A stretch of 64,000 nt of DNA, taken from IMG/VR virus record IMGVR_UViG_3300045988_165036, positions 64,001 to 128,000 of that record; one strand, written 5' to 3'. A program made the position numbers and the translations under genes. Under the pieces are notes generated by a model, which worked only from the letters and a program-made list of their open reading frames with translations, did no database searches and was not told the origin of the DNA. Numbering within the stretch: position 1 is the first letter of the stretch; every line of letters begins with the position of its first letter. Below are positions 3,108 through 63,865 of the stretch, piece by piece. Source of the stretch: a virus.

Positions 3108-3638
3108 ATGTTAATTGAGTGTTTTTGCGGTTGCCGGAACAAAATCGAGCAATCTTGCGCATATAAGGTTGTTCTCGGTGGAACTCGTAAAGTTTACTTT
3201 TTGAACGAACAACATTATCGCCGTTGGCAGGACAAAAATTCGGCAAAATCCAATAAGATTGATGAAAAAGAATTCGCTCCGATTTACGATGCTGTGCTCG
3301 ATATTTGCGGAGGAAAATTTACCGGACGAACCATCGTTTGGAAGGAATACTTGACTTGGAAAGAAGCCGTCGATGGGAATGGCAACAAAGTCAAGTGGTA
3401 TTTGACAGAGAATAAACGCTCGCTGTCGGAGACATTGAAGAAAAAGTATTTTGAGAGCGACTTCGGTATGATTAAATATTTGAGTGCAATTGTTAAAAGC
3501 AATGTGGCGCAGTATCGGTCGAATGAGTATATGAGTTTGCCGCTGAAAGAATCTGAATCACAGGTGAAAGAAAATACGGCGGTAATCCCGAATAGTAAAC
3601 GAAGAAAGTCGTTGGCAGAATTGGAGGACGAAGCGTAA
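3108..3638 (+). CDS. hypothetical Cys-rich protein upstream of the helicase
   Basis: ORF with N-terminal CFCGC...C cluster; position suggests a replication accessory role (inference only). Confidence 0.55.
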   Translation: MLIECFCGCRNKIEQSCAYKVVLGGTRKVYFLNEQHYRRWQDKNSAKSNKIDEKEFAPIYDAVLDICGGKFTGRTIVWKEYLTWKEAVDGNGNKVKWYLTENKRSLSETLKKKYFESDFGMIKYLSAIVKSNVAQYRSNEYMSLPLKESESQVKENTAVIPNSKRRKSLAELEDEA

Positions 3639-5759: not shown

Positions 5760-6040
5760 AAAAAAATAATTTTATTTGGAGGATATTGTGGTCAACCGCC
5801 CAGTTTCCTAAATGAGATGTGGGCTTGAGTAATCGAGCCCACTGATTGATCAGACTAAGTGTTTCGAGCACTACGTTATCAAAGAATATATAGGCACCGT
5901 TGGATGTACTCTCCAGTCTGACGCACTGCGGTATGTGATTAAACAGTTCTGATGGGTAGGAACAGTGTTGCATACGAAAACCTTTGAATAACATTGTCGT
6001 GGAGTAACTACTCTAACATACAGGAGGTTATAGAAACATT
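5760..6040 (+). ncRNA. candidate IscB omega-RNA (structured leader directly upstream of iscB)
   Basis: 280 nt non-coding; 10-bp stem GTGGGCTTGA-GTAA-TCGAGCCCAC (GNRA loop) plus further hairpins; position matches known IscB loci. Confidence 0.5.
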
Positions 6041-6989
6041 GGTGTATGTGTTAAACAAACAAAGTAATCCCTTGATGCCTTGTAAAGAAGCAAAAGCAAG
6101 AAAATTGCTAAAACAAAATAAAGCTATTATAGTAAAATATGAGCCATTTACAATTCAATTGACTTTTGAGTGTGAAAATCAAACGCAAGAAATTTCTCTC
6201 GGAGTTGATGCTGGAAGTAAACACATTGGCATTTCTGCAACAACAGAGAAACAAGTTTTGTATGAAGCAGACGTTGAATTAAGAAACGATATCGTAGATA
6301 AACTCTCTTCTCGTAGAGAAGCAAGAAGAACGAGAAGAAACAGATTGAGATATCGTCCCACAAGATTCAACAATCGAGTTCATTCAAAACACAAAGGTTG
6401 GCTTGCTCCAAGCATCGAGCAGAAAATCAATTCGCATATTCAGGCAATCAAAAGACTTCATCAAATTCTTCCGATTTCAAAAATTATTGTGGAAACGGCG
6501 CAGTTTGATATTCAAAAAATTCAGAATCCAGATATTGAAGGAGAACAATATCAACAAGGTGATCAAATGGGGTTTTGGAATGTACGTGAATATGTGCTTT
6601 TCAGAGATGATCACAAGTGTCAGTATTGTAAAGGAAAATCTAAAGACAATCGATTAAATGTTCATCATATTGAGGGTCGTAAGACGGGCGGAAACGCTCC
6701 GAATAATTTAATTACGTTGTGCGAAACCTGCCATAATGATTATCATCAAGGGAAAATTCAGCTAAATATTAAGCGCGGAAAGAGCTTTCGAGATGCGACA
6801 TTTATGGGCATTATGAGAAAGACATTGTTGTTGAGATTAAGGGAAATATATCCGAATGTTCAAGAAACTTTTGGTTATATTACGAAGAACACCAGAATTG
6901 AAAATAGTCTTCCGAAAGAACATTATATAGACGCAAGATGTATTAGTGGAAATCCTTTAGCAAAACCGTTAGGATATTATCTTTATTAA
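6039..6989 (+). CDS. iscB: IscB RNA-guided nuclease (PLMP, RuvC-I, Arg-rich bridge helix, RuvC-II, HNH, RuvC-III), up to an in-frame TAA
   Basis: NPLMPC; LGVDAGSKHIG; RREARRTRRNRLRYRPTRFNNR; GWLAPSIE...VETAQFDIQK..YQQG; HKCQYC...HHIEG...NLITLCETCHNDYH; KEHYIDA; RBS AGGAGG 6022-6027, then TTG 6039 / GTG 6042. Confidence 0.85.
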   Translation: MVYVLNKQSNPLMPCKEAKARKLLKQNKAIIVKYEPFTIQLTFECENQTQEISLGVDAGSKHIGISATTEKQVLYEADVELRNDIVDKLSSRREARRTRRNRLRYRPTRFNNRVHSKHKGWLAPSIEQKINSHIQAIKRLHQILPISKIIVETAQFDIQKIQNPDIEGEQYQQGDQMGFWNVREYVLFRDDHKCQYCKGKSKDNRLNVHHIEGRKTGGNAPNNLITLCETCHNDYHQGKIQLNIKRGKSFRDATFMGIMRKTLLLRLREIYPNVQETFGYITKNTRIENSLPKEHYIDARCISGNPLAKPLGYYLY

Positions 6990-7570: not shown

Positions 7571-7609
7571 AAAGGAGAGAAAAAAATGACTATTGTTGAC
7601 TTTTATAAG
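7571..7609 (+). other. orphaned strong RBS plus ATG (7586), probably the original primase start, cut off by the TnpB element
   Basis: AAAGGAGAGA then ATG 7586; this frame ends after 29 codons and is +1 relative to tnpB. Confidence 0.45.
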
Positions 7610-8801
7610 AAAGGTGAAAGCGATTATAAAAACAATTCGAGTAATGTTGCTTCCAAACAACAAACAGCAAACTAAATTATTTCAATATGCCAATACTGCT
7701 CGTTTTGCTTATAACTGGGCAATAGGAAGAGAACAAGAAAATTATAAGAATGGTGGAAAATTTATATCTGATGGAGACTTACGAAAAGAGTTTACACAAT
7801 TAAAGAAAACTTCTGAATATGCGTGGCTAAACAATGTTTCTAACAATGTAACAAAGCAAGCAATTAAAGATGCTTGTGAGGCGTACAAAAATTTCTTTAA
7901 GGGAATTACAAAGTCCCCACGATTTAAGAGTAAGAAATATTCAATGCCGAAATTCTACCAAGATAATGTAAGAATTCAGTTTACAGACACACATGTAAAG
8001 ATTGAGGGTTTTGCTACGTCTAAGAAAAAGAATAAGCAAAGACTTAACTGGATAAGACTTGCCGAACGCGGAAGAACACCTATTGGAAATACAAAGTATA
8101 TGAATCCACGCATTAAATATGATGGACTTAATTGGTATATCACAGTTGGAATTGAATACGAAAATTCTACCGCTCCTCCAACCAACGAAGGTGTTGGAAT
8201 CGATTTAGGCATTAAAGATTTGGCAATATGTTCTGACAAGAACAAGTATCAGAATATAAACAAAACCCAAAGAGTTAAGAAGTTAGAAAAAAGAAAGCGC
8301 AGGCTACAACGTTCCATATCAAGAAAATATGAGAATAATAAGAAAGGAGAGCGTTACTGCAAAACAAGCAATATTATAAAAAGTGAAAAAGAACTTTTAA
8401 AATTGAATCACAGACTAACGAATATTCGTCAGAACTACCTACATCAAACAACATCTGAAATTGTAAAACGAAAACCAAGTTTTATCTGTATGGAAGATTT
8501 GAATGTGAGTGGAATGATGAAGAATAAACATTTGTCTAAAGCAGTTCAGCAACAAGGGTTTTATGAATTTAGGAGACAGATTGAATATAAGTCTGAGTGG
8601 AATAACATTCCAGTAATTATAGCAGATAGATTCTTCCCGAGTTCTAAGTTATGTAGTTGTTGTGGAAATATCAAAAAGGATTTGAAACTTAGCGACCGCA
8701 TTTACAAGTGTGAATGTGGAAATATCATAGATAGAGATTATCAAGCAAGTCTAAATCTGAAAAGACATGGAGAAATGTTATTAGAACAATCTGCATTATA
8801 A
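7593..8801 (+). CDS. tnpB: TnpB (IS200/IS605 OrfB-type RNA-guided nuclease), copy 1
   Basis: N-terminal ...LLPNNKQQTKLFQYANTARFAYNWA; RuvC GIDLGIKDLA; ...CMEDLNVSGM; Zn finger CSCCG..CECG; DRDYQASLNL; likely start GTG 7614. Confidence 0.85.
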   Translation: MLTFIRKVKAIIKTIRVMLLPNNKQQTKLFQYANTARFAYNWAIGREQENYKNGGKFISDGDLRKEFTQLKKTSEYAWLNNVSNNVTKQAIKDACEAYKNFFKGITKSPRFKSKKYSMPKFYQDNVRIQFTDTHVKIEGFATSKKKNKQRLNWIRLAERGRTPIGNTKYMNPRIKYDGLNWYITVGIEYENSTAPPTNEGVGIDLGIKDLAICSDKNKYQNINKTQRVKKLEKRKRRLQRSISRKYENNKKGERYCKTSNIIKSEKELLKLNHRLTNIRQNYLHQTTSEIVKRKPSFICMEDLNVSGMMKNKHLSKAVQQQGFYEFRRQIEYKSEWNNIPVIIADRFFPSSKLCSCCGNIKKDLKLSDRIYKCECGNIIDRDYQASLNLKRHGEMLLEQSAL

Positions 8802-8956
8802 CACTTTCAAGTTAATGCAGATATGTACTGGCACGTTAGTCAGGAATTTACGCCTATAGAGTGTACAAGAACTTGTGAGTAGTATATCAGAAATGATTAC
8901 AAAAGCATATACGATGAAATAGGAATGAAACATAAAAGTTTATAACTTTTTATAAG
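7599..8956 (+). mobile_element. TnpB-only IS-like element flanked by ACTTTT(T)ATAAG direct repeats
   Basis: ACTTTTATAAG 7599-7609 and ACTTTTTATAAG 8945-8956; no tnpA. Confidence 0.5.
8802..8956 (+). ncRNA. possible 3' part of the TnpB omega/reRNA (right-end region)
   Basis: Non-coding tail directly after tnpB, by analogy with known TnpB loci. Confidence 0.3.
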
Positions 8957-24924: not shown

Positions 24925-25043
24925 TCGATGCTAATAATTTATATGGAGCGCAAGAGCACCCGTGGCTTTAGTCGTGGGATGAATTGCGCTTAGAATGTTA
25001 TAAATTAAACAATATATTAAAAATCAAAAAGGAGGTGAAGGGC

Positions 25044-26159
25044 GTGGAAAAGGCTTATAAATACCGCATATACCCAAACGAACGGCAAAAAGAAATAATT
25101 GCAAAAACATTTGGTTGTTGCCGATTTGTATATAACAAATATCTTGCAGAAAAGATTGAATTATATAAAACCGAAAAGAAAAACATAACATATGTTAAAT
25201 GTGCAAAAGCAATGTCTGAATTGAAAAACGAGCTTGAATGGCTTACGGAAGTCGATTCCACGGCTCTTCAATCCTCGTTAAAAGACTTAGATAACGCTTA
25301 TAAAAAATTTTTCAAAGAACATGCGGGTTATCCAAAATTCAAAAGCAAGAAAGATAATCATAAGTCTTACAAATCTAAATACACAAATGGTAATATAGAA
25401 TATCTGAACAACCACATTAAACTACCGAAACTTGGTTTGGTAAAAACGAGAAACAAGTTAATACCGCAAGGAAGGATAGTTAATGCAACAATATCACAAG
25501 AACCAACTGGAAAGTATTTTGTATCGTTGTGTTGTGTGGGCGTGAATATTCAGCCATTACCAACCACAAACAATTTGGTCGGTATAGATTTGGGGATTAA
25601 AGAATTCTGTATAACCAGTGATGGTGAGCTTGTGAACAACCCGAAATATCTTAAACAATCTCTTGACAAGCTTGCGAAAGTGCAGAGAGAACTATCTCGA
25701 AAAACAAAAGGTGGCTCTAACCGCAATAAAGCAAGAATAAAAGTTGCGAGATTGTACGAGAAGGTTTCTAATCAACGAAGAGACTTTTTGCAAAAACTTT
25801 CAACGCAAATAATAAAAGAAAATGACATGATTTGTCTCGAAGATTTGCAAGTTAAGAATATGGTTAAAAACCATAAACTTGCACGAGCAATCAACGATGT
25901 TTCTTGGTCGGAGTTTGTAAGAGAATTAGAATATAAAGCTCGTTGGTATGGAAGGACGGTAATTAAAGTCAGCAAATTCTTTCCGAGTTCACAGACTTGC
26001 AGTATTTGCGGTTGTAAAAATGCAGAAACAAAAAGTCTTAAGGTTAGAGAGTGGGATTGCCCCGTTTGTCACGCACACCATGACAGAGATGTAAATGCGG
26101 CGATAAATATTTTAAACGAAGGATTAAATGTTTGGCGGAATGAGAAAAATATGTTATAA
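25044..26159 (+). CDS. tnpB: TnpB, copy 2
   Basis: GGAGG then GTG 25044; [19 protein letters not shown]; GIDLGIKEF; LEDLQVKNM; CSICG...CPVCH; [10 protein letters not shown]. Confidence 0.9.
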
Positions 26160-36296: not shown

Positions 36297-37802
36297 ATGA
36301 AATTATTAAACGATACTAAAAATAATGCCGATACTAGTAATACTGAAGATTTAGAAAGTTTGCTGAATGATTTTGATCGAACTCTAAATCCAAATGCAGA
36401 TCATGCAGATCATAACAACATGCGATCAAACGATGTGCGGTTAGAAGACAAGAAACACAAAAACCCAAATTGGAGAAAAGAGAACGAGAATCTTTCGTGT
36501 TACGCTCTGTCAAGATATTCCAATGAACCGGAAGATGATTTTGATTATTTCGATCTGAATGCTTCATTGAAACAAATTCAAAAAAATATCATTATATCAA
36601 AAAAGGCTGAAAGTTTAGATATTGATTTATCAAAATTGGAAACTAATCACTTGTATAAAAACTGGAAAGAAGTTTGTGCGGATTTAAAAATTTCTTATAA
36701 TGGCAACGGTCGGAATACCATAGAACAAAAGAAAATTGTTTTGGAAAATACAAAATATGAAAAGTGTGGAAATTCATATATATTTTATGAAATCAATCCG
36801 AATTATAAAAACGAGTTTTCTAAAAATAATGAAGTTACAAGGGTCAATTGCGTGGAAGCCATATTATCAAATGTTTTTTCGTCCGCGAATAATCAGCCAA
36901 TTGCCTTGACAGCAAAATGTTGGTTTGAACTTCTTGGGCTAGTTGATGAAAATTATTCTCCGTATAATAAAGAAAATAAAAAACGGTTAATGGCAACCGT
37001 AGAAAAAGATATACAAGAATATGAAATGACGATTGAGGATGGTTCTCCGATTATCAGCTCCGCTGTTAAAACATCAACCGATTTCTTTTATACTAATACA
37101 CAGGCTCGATTCAAAGAAGCATTATTCAATGCCTTTGATTCTCTCCAAAAAAGAGGGGCAATTATAGTTGATACTGTTGTCGGAGGTTTCCCATTAACTA
37201 AAGAACAAGTGGAAACAATAAAGGGAGCGGTTGAAAAAGATCCAGATGTTTCAATATATGATTTGAATATAAGGCTAAAAAGACAGATGATGTCGCTCGG
37301 AAGTTTAAATACGAAATATCTTGAATGCGAAGAAGAGACATTAAAGGATTTAAAAATGAATCGAACGGATTTGAAAATATTACGCAAGAATCCGGGTTTA
37401 GCTAAAAAATATTATGGAAGACTTGGAATTAAAACTGCTCTAAAAATTGGGATGATTTATATATCCAGATTTTTCATAGTTTATCCATATTCTGATAACT
37501 GTAAAAAAGTATTCAAGACCCAATCGCAAGACAAAGATGTTCGAGCTTATGTTAAATATTTAATGCAGAGAGGAATTTTTGAATCGGCTAAAAACAAGAT
37601 GCTGAAAGCAGACGGAAAAGGCGATTTCGGAACAGATAAATTTCTTGTTGCTAATTCGTATTTAATTGAAAAATTAATTAAAGAAAATAGAGAAAATTCA
37701 GAAGAAATGGTGAAATTTGGTATGATAAATGCTCAAAGGTTCGAAAAAAATATTTCGGATGTTTTGTATACAGATGATGTAAACGATGGAGGAGAAGAAT
37801 GA
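36297..37802 (+). CDS. hypothetical protein (501 aa, very AT-rich)
   Basis: AAGGAGG RBS; shares a domain with the N-terminus of 37799..38608. Confidence 0.6.
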   Translation: MKLLNDTKNNADTSNTEDLESLLNDFDRTLNPNADHADHNNMRSNDVRLEDKKHKNPNWRKENENLSCYALSRYSNEPEDDFDYFDLNASLKQIQKNIIISKKAESLDIDLSKLETNHLYKNWKEVCADLKISYNGNGRNTIEQKKIVLENTKYEKCGNSYIFYEINPNYKNEFSKNNEVTRVNCVEAILSNVFSSANNQPIALTAKCWFELLGLVDENYSPYNKENKKRLMATVEKDIQEYEMTIEDGSPIISSAVKTSTDFFYTNTQARFKEALFNAFDSLQKRGAIIVDTVVGGFPLTKEQVETIKGAVEKDPDVSIYDLNIRLKRQMMSLGSLNTKYLECEEETLKDLKMNRTDLKILRKNPGLAKKYYGRLGIKTALKIGMIYISRFFIVYPYSDNCKKVFKTQSQDKDVRAYVKYLMQRGIFESAKNKMLKADGKGDFGTDKFLVANSYLIEKLIKENRENSEEMVKFGMINAQRFEKNISDVLYTDDVNDGGEE

Positions 37803-38608
37803 TAGCAGAAAATTTAAGCAGCAAGCAATATATGCTAAAATACGGAATAAATATAGAGGTTGGTCATGTCTACAAAAATTTTTTAGAAGTTTTGGAAGCA
37901 GTCGGTCTTCCTGTAGAGCTTTCTCAAAGTAAAAGTAGTAAAAGAAGAATTGTAGAGAGTTTAAAAGAACACACTATTTATAGAAGATCGGGACAAAAGT
38001 GGGTGTTCCAAGAAAATAATTATGGAAAAATTAAAGAATTTCCAGAGTTAGAAGAAGGGGAGGCTCTTTTGCCATATGATGATCGAGGGATATATTACAT
38101 TAGCAATTTTGGAAGAATCTGGAATAGAAAAAATCGTGAATGGATTTCGAAATATGAATATAAGGGAAGATATAAAGTGAGTCTTTATAGCCATCCACAT
38201 ATATTATCAAGAGTTGTTGCTATAACATTTATTCCGAATCCAGATAATAAACCAGAGGTAAACCATAAAGATGAAAATCCAAAAAATGATAGAGTAGATA
38301 ATCTTGAGTGGGTAACAAGAAAAGAAAATTTAAATTATGGCACAAGAACTCAAAGAGCTTCTGAAACCAGAGCGAAAAATCATCCCGGGAGCGGTTTCAA
38401 TAAAGGAATGTCTCCTTCAGAAGAGGTTAAACAAAAGATAAGAAACACAATTAAAGAGAAATATCCAGAAGGTTGGGGTTCTTGGAATAAAGGGAAAAAT
38501 AGAAAAAGATCTTCAAATTTTAAACAAAAAGCGATTCAGAAAATCAAAACATTAATTCTTCAATATAATATATCTTTCGAGGATATTTATCCGCCATCAG
38601 ACATTTAA
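37799..38608 (+). CDS. HNH homing endonuclease (NUMOD4 plus HNH_3)
   Basis: YYISNFGRIWN; VNHKDENPKNDRVDNLEWVT. Confidence 0.8.
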   Translation: MIAENLSSKQYMLKYGINIEVGHVYKNFLEVLEAVGLPVELSQSKSSKRRIVESLKEHTIYRRSGQKWVFQENNYGKIKEFPELEEGEALLPYDDRGIYYISNFGRIWNRKNREWISKYEYKGRYKVSLYSHPHILSRVVAITFIPNPDNKPEVNHKDENPKNDRVDNLEWVTRKENLNYGTRTQRASETRAKNHPGSGFNKGMSPSEEVKQKIRNTIKEKYPEGWGSWNKGKNRKRSSNFKQKAIQKIKTLILQYNISFEDIYPPSDI

Positions 38609-38694
38609 CCGCTCCCAGTTCGCCTTCGTTTTCTTCTACTATCTCCCCTCAAAAAATTTTTTCAAAAAATCTCAAACTTTTTTCTCAAACCCCC

Positions 38695-38723
38695 TTGACA
38701 AAACGCATTTTATGTGCTATACT
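38695..38723 (+). promoter_or_regulatory. consensus promoter driving the RNA operon
   Basis: TTGACA-N17-TGC-TATACT. Confidence 0.7.
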
Positions 38724-38729
38724 ATAAGC

Positions 38730-39030
38730 GTGAAAGGGAGAGAGCATCGGTTCTCGAGTAGGGAGCGGTTCAAAGCCTAGTGATGCCCGACACTGACCGC
38801 TCCCGAAGGCTCCATCGGACTCCTTCTCACTACCTCCTTTTTCAAGGGTGAACAAGTGGCCCTTTCCCATGCGTTCCCTTGACGGGTGTGGCTCCGGTTA
38901 AATGCGCTGATAGTTTTCATAGTAAACTCTTTTCAAACGCGACGCCGGTCTTGGTGATGCTTGATCGGTATGACAAAGCGGTCGGACGCTTGACGGTCGG
39001 GACAGACCGGCATCCTTTCTAAAGAGTGTT
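38730..39030 (+). ncRNA. unclassified structured RNA A (about 300 nt)
   Basis: G+C-rich, no RBS-led ORF. Long-range pair GTGAAAGGGAG/CTCCTTCTCAC; hairpins GGGAGCGGT...ACCGCTCCC and GCCGGTC...GACCGGC. Confidence 0.45.
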
Positions 39031-39098
39031 AATTCAGTCGGAAGAATCCCCTACTCATAATAGGACAGTCGCTGGTTCGAAGCCTTGAATTACCACCA
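39031..39098 (+). other. degenerate tRNA-like element (CAU anticodon loop, encoded CCA, reduced D and T arms)
   Basis: Acceptor AATTCAG/TTGAATT; CCTA-CTCATAA-TAGG; GGTTCGAAGCC; ACCA. Confidence 0.3.
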
Positions 39099-39134
39099 TC
39101 ATCAAAATTCAATAATCAAAGGAGAGACCTCCAA

Positions 39135-39308
39135 ATGTTACCAATTATCGTATCCGCAGTTCTGTCTCTTGCCACAATCGGATTCCTGATTTGGTTCTGG
39201 GCACGAACTCCGAGCAATCTCACCAAGTGGTATTGCGTCCCGGTGACGCTCTTCGGAGTAGCGGCAATCCTCGCATTCTGGTTCTTCGTAGTTCTTCCGA
39301 TTCTCTGA
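39135..39308 (+). CDS. small two-TM membrane protein (57 aa, below the ORF-track cutoff)
   Basis: AAAGGAGAG RBS; MLPIIVSAVLSLATIGFLIWFW...VTLFGVAAILAFWFFVVLPIL. Confidence 0.55.
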   Translation: MLPIIVSAVLSLATIGFLIWFWARTPSNLTKWYCVPVTLFGVAAILAFWFFVVLPIL

Positions 39309-39366
39309 TTGAGATGGCTGTCGGGAAAGACCGACACTCGTATCCTCCGCATTTGCGGTCGATTAT

Positions 39367-39448
39367 GGCTCCGTGGCGAAATCGGTAAACGCATCCGATT
39401 TAAGATCGGATACCTGTGGGTTTAAGGGTTCGAATCCCTTCGGAGCTA
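39367..39448 (+). tRNA. trnL: tRNA-Leu (anticodon UAA), long variable arm
   Basis: Acceptor GGCTCCG/CGGAGCT; anticodon arm TCCGA-TTTAAGA-TCGGA; T arm AAGGG-TTCGAAT-CCCTT. Confidence 0.85.
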
Positions 39449-40312
39449 CATCGGATTGTTTTTTGAACAGAGTTTAACTTGTCAGGTCATAACTGACATC
39501 CGATTCCAAGACGCTTGATTGGCAGCCTTCCTTAGTCTCTAAATAGTAATGGAAGCGCCCGACTCCCACGGAAGAGTGGAGCAACCTCACAGAGGAACAG
39601 AAATCCGCCGCTGTGTTGGATAAGTGACCGACGTTGACTGAACCGTCTCGTAAAAATTTCAGTGACAGTCTGGAGAGACAGACATCCATATGGGTGGGTG
39701 GTACTGGGGAGTGCAGAACATCATGTTGTAGAAAGTTAGTTCGACTCTAACCTCATCCGCCAGCAGACCGGTAGCGTTAACACATTCACCGACTCCCGGC
39801 TCAAAAAAATGTGGGGTTCTTTCCAAGGGTTTCTTAGCCTCTAAAAGCAAACCCGATTTTATCCCCTTCAGAAGGGATGCGGTCCCGTTCAAGTCGGGCG
39901 AGGGGTTTAGAGCGTCTGCAGACGTCGGAGTACCGGCTCTACCGTTAAGGAACCGGTGTAGGGCACGCTGGAGAACAGAGTCATTGCCCAGCGTGTAGTG
40001 TAACGAAGATTGAGCAATGATGGCGTCTCGGAAAGACGAGAAGAATCCATACGATGTGGGATGTTCCCCGTCGAAATATGTGAAATTCATAGCTTGAGCC
40101 GTTACAGTCGGAAAGTATTCATAGGCACTCCTCCACCTGTCGCACCCCAGAAATGGACACGCGGAAAAGGGAGAAAAATCGCCGACCCGCTGCGGGCGGG
40201 AGCGGTTCCTGTAGCTGCCTAATTGCGGCTACTGCTAATGGCAGTCTGATCAACTGCTAAGTTCGGTGCCTAAGGGGTTAAATGGGCGCGATGGCCGTCA
40301 CAGCCGAAACAT
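39449..40312 (+). ncRNA. unclassified large structured RNA B (about 860 nt), GOLLD/ROOL-like context
   Basis: G+C-rich, lies between two tRNAs, has many hairpins (CACGCTGG...CCAGCGTG; CGTCT-CGGAA-AGACG; CCCGC-TGCGG-GCGGG; TGTCAG-GTCATAA-CTGACA); its only ORFs lack an RBS. Confidence 0.45.
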
Positions 40313-40389
40313 TGTCGAGTAGCCAAGCGGTAAAGGTGACTGGTTTTGACCCAGTTATTACGTAGATTCGAATCCTGCCTCGACAGCCA
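40313..40389 (+). tRNA. trnQ: tRNA-Gln (anticodon UUG), CCA encoded
   Basis: U1-A72 acceptor TGTCGAG/CTCGACA; D region GCCAAGCGGTAA; ACTGG-TTTTGAC-CCAGT; GCCA end. Confidence 0.85.
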
Positions 40390-40507
40390 GCGGAGAATCT
40401 CCGCTTCTCCAAAGTATCTTCAGGGCACCCGCCTCATCAAGTCCGATCTTGAATTGGAAACTGGTGGGACGGGTTGTTCCGTATAAAAAGAAAGGAAATC
40501 ATTTCCA

Positions 40508-40987
40508 ATGGGCATCACTCTCAACATCAACGTAAATTCCCCTATATATAATAAGACTCCGACCTATAAACCGCTCCCGCAACTCACTCGTCGTCAGAGA
40601 TCGTTTTTCGAGTCGGCTAAAGCAGCATCTATTTTATCAGATCACCCGCATTTCCATCTTGGTTGTGCTATTGCAGAAGGCTCTCGTATCATCTCATCAG
40701 GACACAATTCCGTTACGCGATGTTCTTTAATCCAACGGGAACTCGACAATAACCAATTTGGCGGAGAACACAGGGGAGCTTGCCACGCCGAGACAGCCGC
40801 GTTGCTCCCGCTTATTCGTCAGAGAATCGATTTGGCCTCTTGTACTGCATATCTATATCGCTCCCACAAAGACGGTTCCATTGCTATTTCTCGCCCTTGT
40901 AGCCGGTGTATGAGCCTTATGCGAGCGGTTGGGATTCGACGAGTTTTTTTCACAGTGGAAGGCGGATATGCTGTAGAAGATATTTAG
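40508..40987 (+). CDS. dCMP/cytidine deaminase-fold zinc deaminase
   Basis: CHAETAAL and PCSRCMSLM motifs. Confidence 0.8.
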   Translation: MGITLNINVNSPIYNKTPTYKPLPQLTRRQRSFFESAKAASILSDHPHFHLGCAIAEGSRIISSGHNSVTRCSLIQRELDNNQFGGEHRGACHAETAALLPLIRQRIDLASCTAYLYRSHKDGSIAISRPCSRCMSLMRAVGIRRVFFTVEGGYAVEDI

Positions 40988-56190: not shown

Positions 56191-57453
56191 GGTCAACAAC
56201 CCACAAGCTAAGGCTTGATGGGCTTGTAGCTCGATACGACTTCGTTATTACATTTAATGGTGTAATAATTTATTCGTAAGCATAAACTACCTATCAGGAC
56301 ATGAGCTTGCCCCTAAAATTCTTTTTCCCTCTGTTAAAATATTCTTTGCAGCATTAACATCTCTGTCGTGTACTGTACCGCACTCTGGACAGGTCCATTC
56401 TCTAATCCACAGTGGTTTCCTTCCTGTAACACGCCCACAACACGAACAAATTTGCGAACTGGGAAACCATCTATCAATTTTCTGGACTGTTCGACCTTTA
56501 TCTAATGCTTTATATTCTAACATATTTACAAATTCAGACCAGCCAACATCAGAAATGCTTAATGCTAAATGATGATTGTTCATAAGACCTTTTACATTCA
56601 AATCTTCTAAAGCTATCACTTGGTTCTCGTTTGTAAGCCTATAGGAAATTTTATGTAAATAATCTTTTCTTTGGTTGGCGATATGCTGATGTAACTTAGC
56701 AACTTTTAATTTCTGATTATTATAATTATTGCTACCTCGCTCCATTTTACTTAGCTTTCTTTGTTTTCGTTTCAACTTCGGCAATTCTTTTTTCAAAGAT
56801 TGTAATGCCGGAAACTTCTCACCATCAGAACAAATAACCAAGTCTTTTAACCCCAAATCAATACCGACTTCCTTATTTACTGGCTCTAATTTTTCTGTTA
56901 TTTCTTCATCCTTCCATAGAATAGCAATATAAAATTCACCAGTGGGCGTCATAGAAATAGTACATAATTTTGCAGTCCCAGTTTTATGGCGATGATTAAC
57001 AATCTTTACATATCCCAGTTTTGGCAACTTAATGTTATTTTCTGTAACTGGATAACCAAAAGAAGTCATGGTTTTATAACTATTTTTAAGCTTCTTTTTA
57101 CTTTTATACTTTGGAAATCCAATATTTTTTTCTTTGAAAAATTTAAAAAATGCAGATTGCAAATCCATCTGAGTAAAACACAATGCCATAGAGTCAACTT
57201 CTTTTAACCATTCAAATTCTTTTTTATAAAAAGCAGGAGTATTAATTTTGCTCTTTTGATATTTTTTATAATATTTAATATTATCATATAACGCTTGATT
57301 CCAATACCATCTACAACAACCAAAAGTTTTAATTATGATCTGCTTTTGTTCATCAGCGGGGTAACATCTTATTTTGTATGCCTTAATAATTTTTACCTCC
57401 TAATATAACATTCTATTTTTTGCAATTCCTCCCATCGGCTAAAGCCAATGGGA
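56191..57453 (-). mobile_element. TnpB-only IS200/605-like element, copy 3
   Basis: Left-end hairpin CCATTGGC-TTTA-GCCGATGG immediately after the RNAP stop codon; right-end hairpin CCCA(T)CAAGC-CTTA-GCTTGTGGG. Confidence 0.6.
56287..57390 (-). CDS. tnpB: TnpB, copy 3 (full length only if ATT 57390 is the start)
   Basis: The frame is open to 57399; GGAGGT-AAAA-ATT ATT AAG GCA TAC aligns with GTG GAA AAG GCT TAT of copy 2; GIDLGLKDL; LEDLNVKGL; CSCCG...CPECG; [10 protein letters not shown]. Confidence 0.8.
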
Positions 57454-63528: not shown

Positions 63529-63708
63529 CATTCTTGAAAACGGCTAAAAAGTATGATTTTTGGCTGGTTTTAAAGAATGTCACAAGGAATTCGTTGTTTC
63601 CTCTATGAGAAGAAGAATAATAAAAAAAATAAATAAAAGCTGAATTTTAGTTACCAGAACGAGCAATCGTTCGCAGGGGCGGCGTTACGACGTCGCCCCT
63701 TACCCTAT

Positions 63709-63784
63709 GCCTTTTTAGTTCAGTTGGTGGAACGTTTGACTGTTAATCAAAATGTCGTTGGTTCGAGTCCAGCAAAAGGCGCCA
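63709..63784 (+). tRNA. trnN: tRNA-Asn (anticodon GUU), CCA encoded
   Basis: Acceptor GCCTTTT/AAAAGGC; TTTGA-CTGTTAA-TCAAA; GTTGG-TTCGAGT-CCAGC; GCCA. Confidence 0.85.
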
Positions 63785-63865
63785 GATCGTCCCTCGGCTT
63801 CCCACGGGTCCGAGGGCAAATATTGGAAAGTAGCAAATCGGCAATAAATTGGAGGAATAAGTTAT

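Follow-up and report, generated by a model that had tools for sequence, protein, structure and literature searches.

Within a 64,000-nt stretch of viral DNA (IMG/VR record IMGVR_UViG_3300045988_165036, positions 64,001 to 128,000; hereafter the window, numbered from its first letter), an array of tRNAs, tRNA-shaped elements and small hairpins lies at 38.7–40.4 kb on the plus strand. We propose, with a probability that we put at roughly 60%, that this array is a hypervariable tRNA island working as one mostly non-coding operon, punctuated by tRNA shapes, cut by RNase P, reshuffled by recombination and yielding hairpin-capped small RNAs. An initial annotation had described a promoter-driven RNA operon with tRNAs, a mini open reading frame (ORF) and two giant RNAs, termed RNA A (about 300 nt) and RNA B (about 860 nt, 39450–40312). 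A mostly non-coding operon with these tRNAs and this mini-ORF is indeed what we find, but the two giant RNAs are not.

Related loci were collected in two ways. A search with the deaminase encoded downstream of the array gave six IMG/VR contigs of 81–169 kb, and a search of metagenome assemblies with a 17-mer from the leader gave about 20 more loci, one of them from a human gut metagenome. All of these approximately 25 loci have the promoter and RNA A in common, at 76–96% identity. Distant phages share a gene order as well: a 395- to 500-aa protein, in most cases an HNH gene next, then a gene-poor array of ∼2 kb and finally the deaminase. The flanking genes of distant loci L210 and L212 are 77–81% identical to those of the window in nucleotide sequence, and the deaminases of L210, L212 and L216 are 53–56% identical in amino acid sequence. 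Deaminase homologues from other phage groups (L207, L208, L217 and L218) lack the hairpin and leader motifs, and the INPHARED phages contain no match to 38600–40500 (blastn, distant setting). Pattern searches of IMG/VR were discarded: the GCCGGTCTTGGTGRTGCT pattern gave 35 matches, nearly all by chance, and the hairpin 16-mer gave 74, real only in the relatives.

The array carries a recurrent hairpin signal. A direct-repeat search and a dedicated scan found, on the plus strand, four copies within 1.05 kb of a motif made of TGACA, a 5-bp stem and a GA[A/C/G]AGA loop (GANAGA hairpins 1–4; Table 1). The motif is expected 0.8 times per 64 kb per strand, and no copy occurs on the minus strand. Across all loci, 14 distinct stems enclose an invariant G-GANAGA-C, with compensatory changes at four of the five pairs and 11 extra pair types, a level reached by none of 500 shuffles. 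The scan required pairing and was re-checked on matches to flank and loop alone, among which pairing is bimodal, with all five pairs formed in 14 of 23. These hexaloops, rather than the GNRA-like loops that had been reported, are the recurrent loops of the locus. The conserved motifs might instead act as DNA, whether as operators, as hot spots of recombination or as a signal for replication or packaging. The window and its relatives carry a strong excess of the 10-mer AACCGCTCCC on both strands, with two copies in a stem of leader domain A1, and recombination breakpoints coincide with conserved segments, as such a DNA-level role would predict. However, the GANAGA hairpins and all tRNA-shaped elements lie on one strand downstream of a strong promoter, their stems covary around fixed loops, which fits folded RNA, and the locus shows no composition-skew feature. 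We therefore consider a DNA-level role very improbable.

In relatives, the hairpin starts 22–47 nt upstream of tRNAs called by ARAGORN (Leu, Gly, Met, Ile, Glu and Asn), and the commonest distance is 24 nt, corresponding to the 16-nt hairpin plus the 8 nt AYYCATAT. Each hairpin type also has its own upstream flank: GACAGA hairpins follow leader segment A2, GAAAGA hairpins follow the mini-ORF, GAGAGA hairpins follow spacer M5, and TCTCG-GAAAGA hairpins follow spacer M9. Because the upstream flank is constant and the downstream element varies, the hairpin is part of the 3′ end of the segment that precedes it, with the recombination joints falling just behind it. From this hairpin-to-tRNA geometry we infer punctuation by RNase P. 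The combination of TGACA, hairpin and CATAT was also considered as an internal promoter and rejected, because its −10-like part extends as far as the first tRNA base, which would put the transcript start within the tRNA.

The tRNA-shaped elements need not decode. Besides tRNA-Leu(UAA) and tRNA-Gln(UUG), which ARAGORN and Rfam confirm as originally annotated, the array contains a dead tRNA-Met, an anticodon-less tRNA-like RNA and a minihelix. The dead tRNA-Met, earlier seen as a degenerate tRNA-like element, is a recombinant. Its 5′ 62 nt match an L100-type tRNA-Met that is intact in L100, and from the T loop on it matches an allele that is intact in L005, L006, L061, L087 and L101. The two alleles cross over within GGTTCGAA, which has left the T and acceptor stems unpaired, and neither ARAGORN nor Rfam calls the element. 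L097 carries another chimera of these two alleles, in which the crossover falls in the anticodon loop.

The tRNA-like RNA at 39692–39762 has by contrast kept its fold. Over eight distinct sequences from four clades, 99.4% of its 20 pairs are formed, and four pairs show compensatory change, which none of 500 shuffles reached; slid controls are 34–49% paired. A second alignment, which takes in a divergent subfamily, agrees with this: there, 16 of 16 pairs of the acceptor, D and T stems are formed in every one of eight sequences, three of them with compensatory changes. The third acceptor pair is G.U in eight of eight sequences in each of the two alignments. The discriminator is A or G, and CCA is encoded in most copies, including that of the window. 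The anticodon loop has only 3 nt (UCA, CCA or AAG), on a stem that covaries (AACA/UGUU in the window vs. GACA/UGUC elsewhere). The element thus falls outside canonical tRNAs as defined by a 7-nt anticodon loop and a score of at least 29 bits: the Rfam tRNA model (RF00005) does not report it at E ≤ 10 in a 261-nt search, and ARAGORN makes no default call. The L210 orthologue scores 40 bits with the Rfam tRNA model. A family model, R1, scores the window copy, the only one in the window, at 94 bits and canonical tRNAs at no more than 34 bits. The acceptor/T-arm minihelix occupies the tRNA slot of other relatives, after spacer M7 and an 8-nt linker, and its acceptor-like stem covaries (CCCCTT/AGGGG, CCCCTTT/AAAGGGG and CCCTCT/AGAGGG).

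A second non-canonical tRNA-like family, absent from the window, was seen at L003 4561–4631, L005 3101–3170, L210 ∼3293–3363 and L212 ∼6773–6842. Its members have a normal cloverleaf with an invariant 6-nt anticodon loop, GCUUAU, on a covarying stem (CTGCG/CGCAG vs. CTGTG/CACAG), and ARAGORN labels them “tRNA-???(tt)”.

The non-decoding tRNA shapes might themselves be the point of the operon, as decoys or substitutes directed against host tRNA-targeting defences or as RNAs charged with alanine for non-ribosomal use, with punctuation secondary. The G3.U70 pair is sufficient for recognition by alanyl-tRNA synthetase (AlaRS), and by analogy its presence here suggests alanine charging. Such a role would account for the invariance of G3.U70 and A/G73, for a CCA end encoded in most members, and for an anticodon arm that is shortened yet still covarying. 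It also fits the relatives' tRNA-like RNA with its invariant 6-nt loop and the two clades that have non-canonical tRNA-like RNAs only, and it agrees with the proposal that phage tRNAs with altered anticodon loops evade anticodon nucleases (PMC10264068). However, the L212 and L216 copies end in CAA and the L100 copy has lost its CCA, and among the genes adjoining the array we identified none for defence or anti-defence. We hold this explanation to be possible but a clear second to punctuation.

Comparison of the loci also indicates that cassettes have been exchanged between phages by recombination at short conserved segments, namely after hairpins, in T loops and in anticodon loops. Breakpoints recur at ∼39012–23, 39336–50, 39559, 39692, 39760, 39863/39905, 40052–76, 40119–29, 40234, 40269 and 40407–19. 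The same slot holds, in different relatives, tRNAs for Glu, Lys, Leu(AAG), Leu(UAA), Leu(CAA), Met, Ile(UAU), Gly, Phe, Asn or Gln, with two canonical tRNAs in the window array and up to five in relatives. Some relatives (L005 3754–3829, L103, L001 4783–4865 and L004 3702–3792) have tRNAs with the unusual A34 anticodons Phe-AAA, Asn-AUU and Leu-AAG, or a ∼90-nt tRNA-Ile(UAU). In two clades the operon is retained without canonical tRNAs: the L212 and L216 arrays contain none (ARAGORN default; Rfam gathering score) and still carry the leader, the hairpins, the tRNA-like RNA, the M5 core, the 5′ part of M10 and the minihelix, and L212 additionally retains part of M9.

So much turnover raises the question of whether the array is a decaying tRNA graveyard, in which only the two canonical tRNAs and the mini-ORF function and everything else is recombination debris that looks alike through recent descent. 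One element is demonstrably a dead recombinant tRNA, array content differs between close relatives, and relaxed ARAGORN thresholds give many weak tRNA-like matches. Debris would not be expected, however, to keep its pairing through compensatory changes, as the tRNA-like RNA, the minihelix and the hairpins do. Nor does decay sit well with an M5 core and hairpin 3 that are 90–99% identical between clades whose flanking genes are 77–81% identical, with a leader architecture that persists despite sequence divergence, or with the retention of promoter and array in L212 and L216. A graveyard is thus unlikely.

The same assortment bears on the claim that the locus encodes two large, ornate RNAs, perhaps a new class that would rank beside GOLLD and ROOL. 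These families are known for such a size, a phage setting and a neighbourhood of tRNAs, and the array resembles them in its phage or Bacillota-type setting, its tRNA neighbours and its hundreds of nucleotides without ORFs. It also has many local helices, and RNA A is a conserved structured domain. We searched all 4227 families of Rfam 15 with cmscan, over the whole window at gathering scores and over 38500–40600, 38722–39030, 39450–40315 and 39660–39920 at E ≤ 10. The whole-window search returned HEARO, RAGATH-18 and three tRNAs, of which only two tRNAs lie in the array, and the searches at E ≤ 10 returned chance-level fragments only (NPPA-AS1_3, an AdoCbl-II fragment, ceN113 and JUMPstart). 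Neither GOLLD (RF01998) nor ROOL (RF03087) matched the window at gathering score or 38500–40600, 38722–39030 and 39450–40315 at E ≤ 10, and no match to RNase P RNA, group I or II introns, T-box leader or transfer-messenger RNA (tmRNA) appeared in the array at E ≤ 10; ARAGORN likewise called no tmRNA. Folding is not clearly better than that of shuffled sequence, either for whole RNA A (z = −1.03) or for RNA B (z = −1.85, with 1 of 20 shuffles as good).

Moreover, RNA B is not inherited as one unit. Its modules are present, absent or re-ordered independently, even among near-identical phages, and it contains the tRNA-like RNA, the minihelix and two of the four GANAGA hairpins. Because its pieces assort independently and the same slot holds different tRNAs, RNA B is a mosaic and not a single evolutionary unit. 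RNAalifold alignments support local hairpins within it and no long-range pair. Of the complementary segments listed initially, GTGAAAGGGAG/CTCCTTCTCAC and CACGCTGG/CCAGCGTG are present as described. GCCGGTC/GACCGGC is present too, but its long-range stem was rejected as the preferred pairing, since it competes with three local hairpins of better comparative support. The array therefore differs from GOLLD and ROOL in having no model match and no single conserved large architecture, being modular and recombining between modules. For RNA B, the idea of one large RNA is largely refuted, and we find the two-RNA interpretation as a whole scarcely credible. What stands of the unclassified structured RNAs is RNA A.

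RNA A is, by its comparative profile, a conserved structured 5′ leader. Its first domain, A1, has no Rfam match. Its closing stem P1 joins GTGAAAGGGAG (38730–38740) to CTCCTTCTCAC (38820–38830), a pairing that the comparative data support. Distant clades have the same promoter type and, in a different sequence, the same layout: the leader 5′ end pairs with a segment 90–130 nt downstream, and each of five clades has its own complementary closing segments in the same place. These are GUGAAAGGGAG/CUCCUUCUCAC in the window, GCGUAAACAGG/CCUGUUUACGC in L210, AAACAG/CUGUUU plus GAGAGGGCG/CGCCCUCUC in L212, and CAAGAU/AUCUUG plus GAGAGGG/CCCUCUC in L216; stems of different clades cannot be aligned position by position. 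After the closing stem, the tract ACCUCCUUU recurs in the five diverged clades as ACCTC[CT]TT (window type, L210, L212, L215 and L216). It resembles the anti-Shine-Dalgarno end of 16S rRNA, the leader 5′ end is Shine-Dalgarno-like, and in the minimum-energy fold of the window these two segments base-pair with one another instead of forming P1. Further downstream, all five clades have a hairpin with a ..CCUUUC loop (CCCUUUC in the window), and in L004 and L097 unrelated sequence replaces the linker there. Each clade also has one or two hairpins of the A2 type with covarying stems and a UURGUGGUKYUU loop motif. Close relatives are too invariant in the leader for a covariation test. Candidate roles for a leader of this kind include a 5′ stabiliser, a cis-acting antitermination RNA for a hairpin-rich untranslated transcript, and a trans-acting RNA.

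These features together may point to a more specific function. The conserved core could be, instead of the tRNAs, a phage non-coding RNA system not described before, comprising the leader with its anti-Shine-Dalgarno-like tract, hairpin-capped small RNAs and tRNA mimics with the alanine pair, all released by tRNA-type processing and acting on host translation or on tRNA-targeting immunity. Such a system, if real, would provide decoys, sponges for synthetases or nucleases, or RNAs that pair with Shine-Dalgarno or anti-Shine-Dalgarno sequences. We advance this only tentatively and regard it as doubtful in its full form.

Between leader and tRNA-Gln, the operon holds one gene and several spacers. 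The 57-aa two-transmembrane (two-TM) mini-ORF had been annotated correctly and is evidently coding: it is retained at 57–58 aa in 17 of 18 loci, with conservative substitutions, one in-frame codon insertion and 81% nucleotide identity, and its product has no family match. The M5 core together with hairpin 3 (39559–39683, 125 nt) is 90%, 97% and 99% identical to L210, L212 and L216, respectively. A small ORF over M5 was rejected as a gene because its start frame differs between variants or the start is lacking. Spacer M7 is followed, depending on the relative, by the minihelix, the 6-nt-loop tRNA-like RNA or tRNA-Leu(CAA). A JUMPstart/ops-like match at its start (39761–39778, CAGCAGA..CGGTAGCGT, 15.4 bits, E 0.9–7) was set aside as probably due to chance, the GGTAGC core being GGCAGC in many relatives. 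Spacer M9 is 81% identical in L212, and the pairing of CACGCTGG (39966–73) with CCAGCGTG (39989–96) is mostly retained in L076 and L212. For M10, 14 distinct sequences were collected, and RNAalifold on 11 of them gave 5 compensatory and 15 one-sided pair changes (for example, CCCGC/GCGGG vs. CCCAC/GUGGG). L212 and L216 match its 5′ half at 85–87% identity, and in L005, L103 and L045 another sequence takes the place of its 3′ half.

Our model of the operon is as follows. Transcription would start near 38730 and run first through the leader, with A1, the ACCUCCUUU tract and the conserved-loop hairpins, and then through a series of cassettes, each made of a cargo segment and a tRNA, tRNA-like RNA or minihelix. 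The cargo segments would be the leader itself, the mini-ORF mRNA and spacers M5, M7, M9 and M10, most of which end in a GANAGA hairpin. RNase P would cut at the 5′ end of every tRNA-shaped element, freeing the tRNAs and leaving each cargo RNA with a 3′-terminal hairpin that would shield it from 3′ exonucleases, an arrangement of the type called tRNA punctuation. The syntenic HNH endonuclease may promote cassette exchange. The canonical U34 tRNAs would supplement decoding of the A-ending codons favoured in the window genes (CAA 61%, AAA 66% and GAA 70%).

Several points weigh against this model. We infer the transcription start, read-through and every processing site. Hairpin 2 of the window lies 47 nt, not 24 nt, upstream of tRNA-Leu, and the sequence right after hairpin 4 is not convincingly tRNA-shaped. 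Simple exonuclease protection needs no conserved loop sequence, so the hairpin may instead bind a protein or partner RNA. Close relatives are 88–96% identical, which leaves little covariation beyond the tRNA-like RNA and the GANAGA hairpins. In A1, the L001 clade has one C.A mismatch, and the second A1 hairpin shows non-compensated changes; in loci derived from metagenomes, the 17-mer is invariant by construction. M5 might be nearly identical between clades because it was exchanged horizontally not long ago, and not because it is constrained. Finally, a scan of GTDB genomes with the A1 17-mer gave 27 matches, all by chance, and found no host or prophage; four of them, in Prevotellaceae, are a chromosomal gene that contains the 17-mer by chance.

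Table 1. Features of the array in window coordinates
Feature	Position	Strand	Remarks
A/T-tract, UP-like	38648–38694	+	Upstream of promoter; AAAAAATTTTTTCAAAAAATCTCAAACTTTTTTC block kept in all relatives
Promoter, sigma-70/sigma-A type	38695–38723	+	TTGACA, 17 nt, TG-n-TATACT
Leader domain A1	38729–38830	+	Multi-branch fold closed by P1; nearly invariant, 18 distinct sequences
Pyrimidine tract ACCUCCUUUUU	38832–38842	+	Anti-Shine-Dalgarno-like; just 3′ of P1
CCCUUUC-loop hairpin	38856–38870	+	CCTTTCC-loop hairpin with covarying stems in all five clades
A2 hairpin a	38945–38968	+	CCGGTC, loop UUGGUGAUGCUU, GATCGG
A2 hairpin b	38976–38991	+	AAGCG-GTCGGA-CGCTT; RNAalifold; invariant in close relatives
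GANAGA hairpin 1	38996–39011	+	GTCGG GACAGA CCGGC; compensatory variants in relatives
Dead tRNA-Met(CAU)	39023–39098	+	T and acceptor stems mismatched; recombinant of two alleles
Ribosome-binding site (RBS) and mini-protein gene	39119–39308	+	57 aa, two-TM; ORF 39135–39308, RBS AAAGGAGAG
GANAGA hairpin 2	39320–39335	+	GTCGG GAAAGA CCGAC; 11 nt after mini-ORF stop
tRNA-Leu(UAA)	39367–39449	+	ARAGORN; Rfam tRNA 62.7 bits
Long hairpin after tRNA-Leu	39450–39505	+	ATCGGAT...ATCCGAT, inner TGTCAG/CTGACA; covarying version in L086
Spacer M5	39506–39662 (core 39559–39662)	+	Row of small hairpins; non-coding
GANAGA hairpin 3	39668–39683	+	GTCTG GAGAGA CAGAC; upstream flank always module M5, downstream element varies
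tRNA-like RNA	39692–39762	+	Acceptor, D and T arms; G3.U70; G73-CCA; 4-bp anticodon stem with UCA triloop
Spacer M7	39763–39862	+	Ends in hairpin plus 8 nt just before next tRNA slot
Acceptor/T-arm minihelix	39863–39905	+	CCCCTTC...TCCCGTTCAAGTCGGGC GAGGGG; in nearly all loci
Spacer M9	39906–40018	+	Includes CACGCTGG/CCAGCGTG hairpin; colinear in L076
GANAGA hairpin 4	40026–40041	+	TCTCG GAAAGA CGAGA; motif scan
Spacer M10	40050–40312	+	Upstream of tRNA-Gln; several hairpins, including UCCUCC-loop hairpin; AAGGGAG tract
tRNA-Gln(UUG)	40313–40389	+	CCA encoded; ARAGORN; Rfam 52.6 bits
Terminal hairpin	40390–40404	+	GCGGAG-AAT-CTCCGC; weak U tract; read from sequence

The boundaries of the operon agree well with the initial annotation. 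The promoter matches the consensus at 11 of 12 positions plus the TG extension, is the top-scoring promoter-like site in 8 kb and occurs once in the window; it is kept, as is the upstream A/T-tract region, in the approximately 25 close relatives and in four distant clades. G+C content is 0.47–0.54 across 38650–40450 vs. 0.25–0.35 directly upstream, and an ORF scan of 38609–40507 found no long ORF. A minus-strand ORF of 143 aa was rejected as a gene, having no Pfam match and crossing modules that assort independently. The hairpin described after tRNA-Gln is present as well, and terminator prediction does not call it.

Directly upstream of the array is an HNH_3 endonuclease gene (37799–38608), as in L210 and L212, and downstream is a dCMP-deaminase-type gene (40508–40987). 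The segment 36297–38608, which encodes a 501-aa protein and the HNH_3 endonuclease, has a G+C content of 0.25–0.36 (0.25–0.33 outside the 0.36 stretch near 36850–37300), and both genes are syntenic with the array in L210 and L212. Searches of Pfam, PHROG, NCBIfam and PDB sequences gave no match for the 501-aa protein. The deaminase gene has no promoter of its own visible in the window and is therefore probably co-transcribed with the array. What comes after hairpin 4 in L212 is a terminator instead of a tRNA. In distant clades a clear terminator closes the array (L212 7540–7630, L215 3575 and L216 4440), and the deaminase gene of these three has its own TTGACA/TATACT promoter. The region is also rich in the 9-mer ACCGCTCCC, found 7 times in the window vs. 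0.17 expected per 64 kb. All seven copies fall within 3.4 kb (37223–40578) on both strands, and six of the seven sites carry the 10-mer AACCGCTCCC. Two copies build a stem of A1. In relatives L001–L006 the 9-mer occurs 7–16 times per 12.4 kb, within genes, at gene ends and immediately ahead of the start codon of the deaminase. It may serve as a regulator site or as a Chi-like element.

Phage replication genes lie around the array in the wider window, coding for a DnaB-like helicase, a primase, a DNA polymerase and a RecD-like helicase. Judged by the RecD-like helicase, the nearest isolates, with 29–36% identity, are phages of Thomasclavelia, Brevibacillus and staphylococci. The source is therefore probably a large (∼80–180 kb) phage of gut Bacillota, and the sigma-A type promoter is consistent with this. 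The window also carries several TnpB- or IscB-type elements. HEARO RNA (128.6 bits) adjoins an IscB-like HNH ORF (5994–6989), and 5791–6989 is evidently an IscB/omega-RNA type mobile element within the phage replication module. Three TnpB-like ORFs (phrog_506) lie at 7593–8925, 24984–26159 and 56287–57189 (minus strand); a RAGATH-18 RNA (8853–8925, 69 bits), 50 nt 3′ of the first, suggests the guide-RNA end of that element. A third tRNA of the window, Asn-GUU, lies at 63709–63784 with G+C-rich hairpins on both sides (63677–63817), GGGGCGGCG..CGTCGCCCC before it and CCCTCGG..CCGAGGG after it. It has no GANAGA hairpin, and the GANAGA signal is thus specific to the 38.7–40.4 kb array.

It is instructive to set the array beside systems already described. 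Phage tRNA clusters are usually seen as codon supplements or, lately, as counters to tRNA-cleaving defences, and the T4 tRNA cluster encodes two stable small RNAs of unknown function. Here, too, tRNAs are clustered on one strand with phage replication genes around them. Like the T4 cluster, the array contains extra non-tRNA RNAs and has a homing-type endonuclease gene in or beside it. The SegB homing endonuclease of T4 drives the preferential inheritance of its cluster (PMC2330249). More generally, the array shares with such clusters, surveyed in viruses in PMC6409571, clustered co-transcribed tRNA genes, a large lytic-type phage and a content that varies between relatives. Unlike them, it consists mostly of non-canonical elements, has a GANAGA hairpin before its tRNA slots and a long structured leader, and persists as an operon in two clades without any canonical tRNA. 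New relative to phage tRNA clusters are the hairpin signal, the family of tRNA-like RNAs that lack an anticodon, and the conservation of leader and spacers; a limited literature search found no earlier description of them. A survey of structured RNAs in gut phages, which drew on the same data source (IMG/VR and human-gut assemblies), lists 10,006 candidates, including tRNA-like ones and motifs upstream of genes (PMC10690425). The locus presents a lineage of abundant gut phages whose tRNA island is mostly non-decoding mimics, a leader, a fixed hairpin signal and spacers more conserved than neighbouring genes. It also displays island reshuffling at the level of sequence, which explains the origin of phage tRNA pseudogenes.

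Two further comparisons concern the tRNA shapes themselves. The tRNA-like domain of tmRNA and the acceptor minihelices of tRNA-Ala have G3.U70 identity. The tRNA-like RNA of the array resembles them in its G.U third acceptor pair, its T arm, its CCA end and its lack of a functional anticodon. It differs from tmRNA in having no mRNA-like domain or pseudoknots and in combining a normal D arm with a stub anticodon arm. Mitochondrial polycistronic transcripts use tRNA punctuation, and in MALAT1/mascRNA, RNase P cuts upstream of a tRNA-like element while a 3′ structure stabilises the upstream RNA. As in these systems, the array places tRNA-shaped elements, which need not decode, right after the structured 3′ end of an upstream RNA, and its minihelix and tRNA-like shapes are of the kind that RNase P accepts. 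In contrast to these systems, the array is bacterial and phage-borne, its cleavage is predicted, and a simple hairpin with a conserved hexaloop would take the place of a triple helix. If the punctuation model is true, the array would offer a compact case from a bacterial virus of tRNA shapes serving as processing signals for small RNAs.

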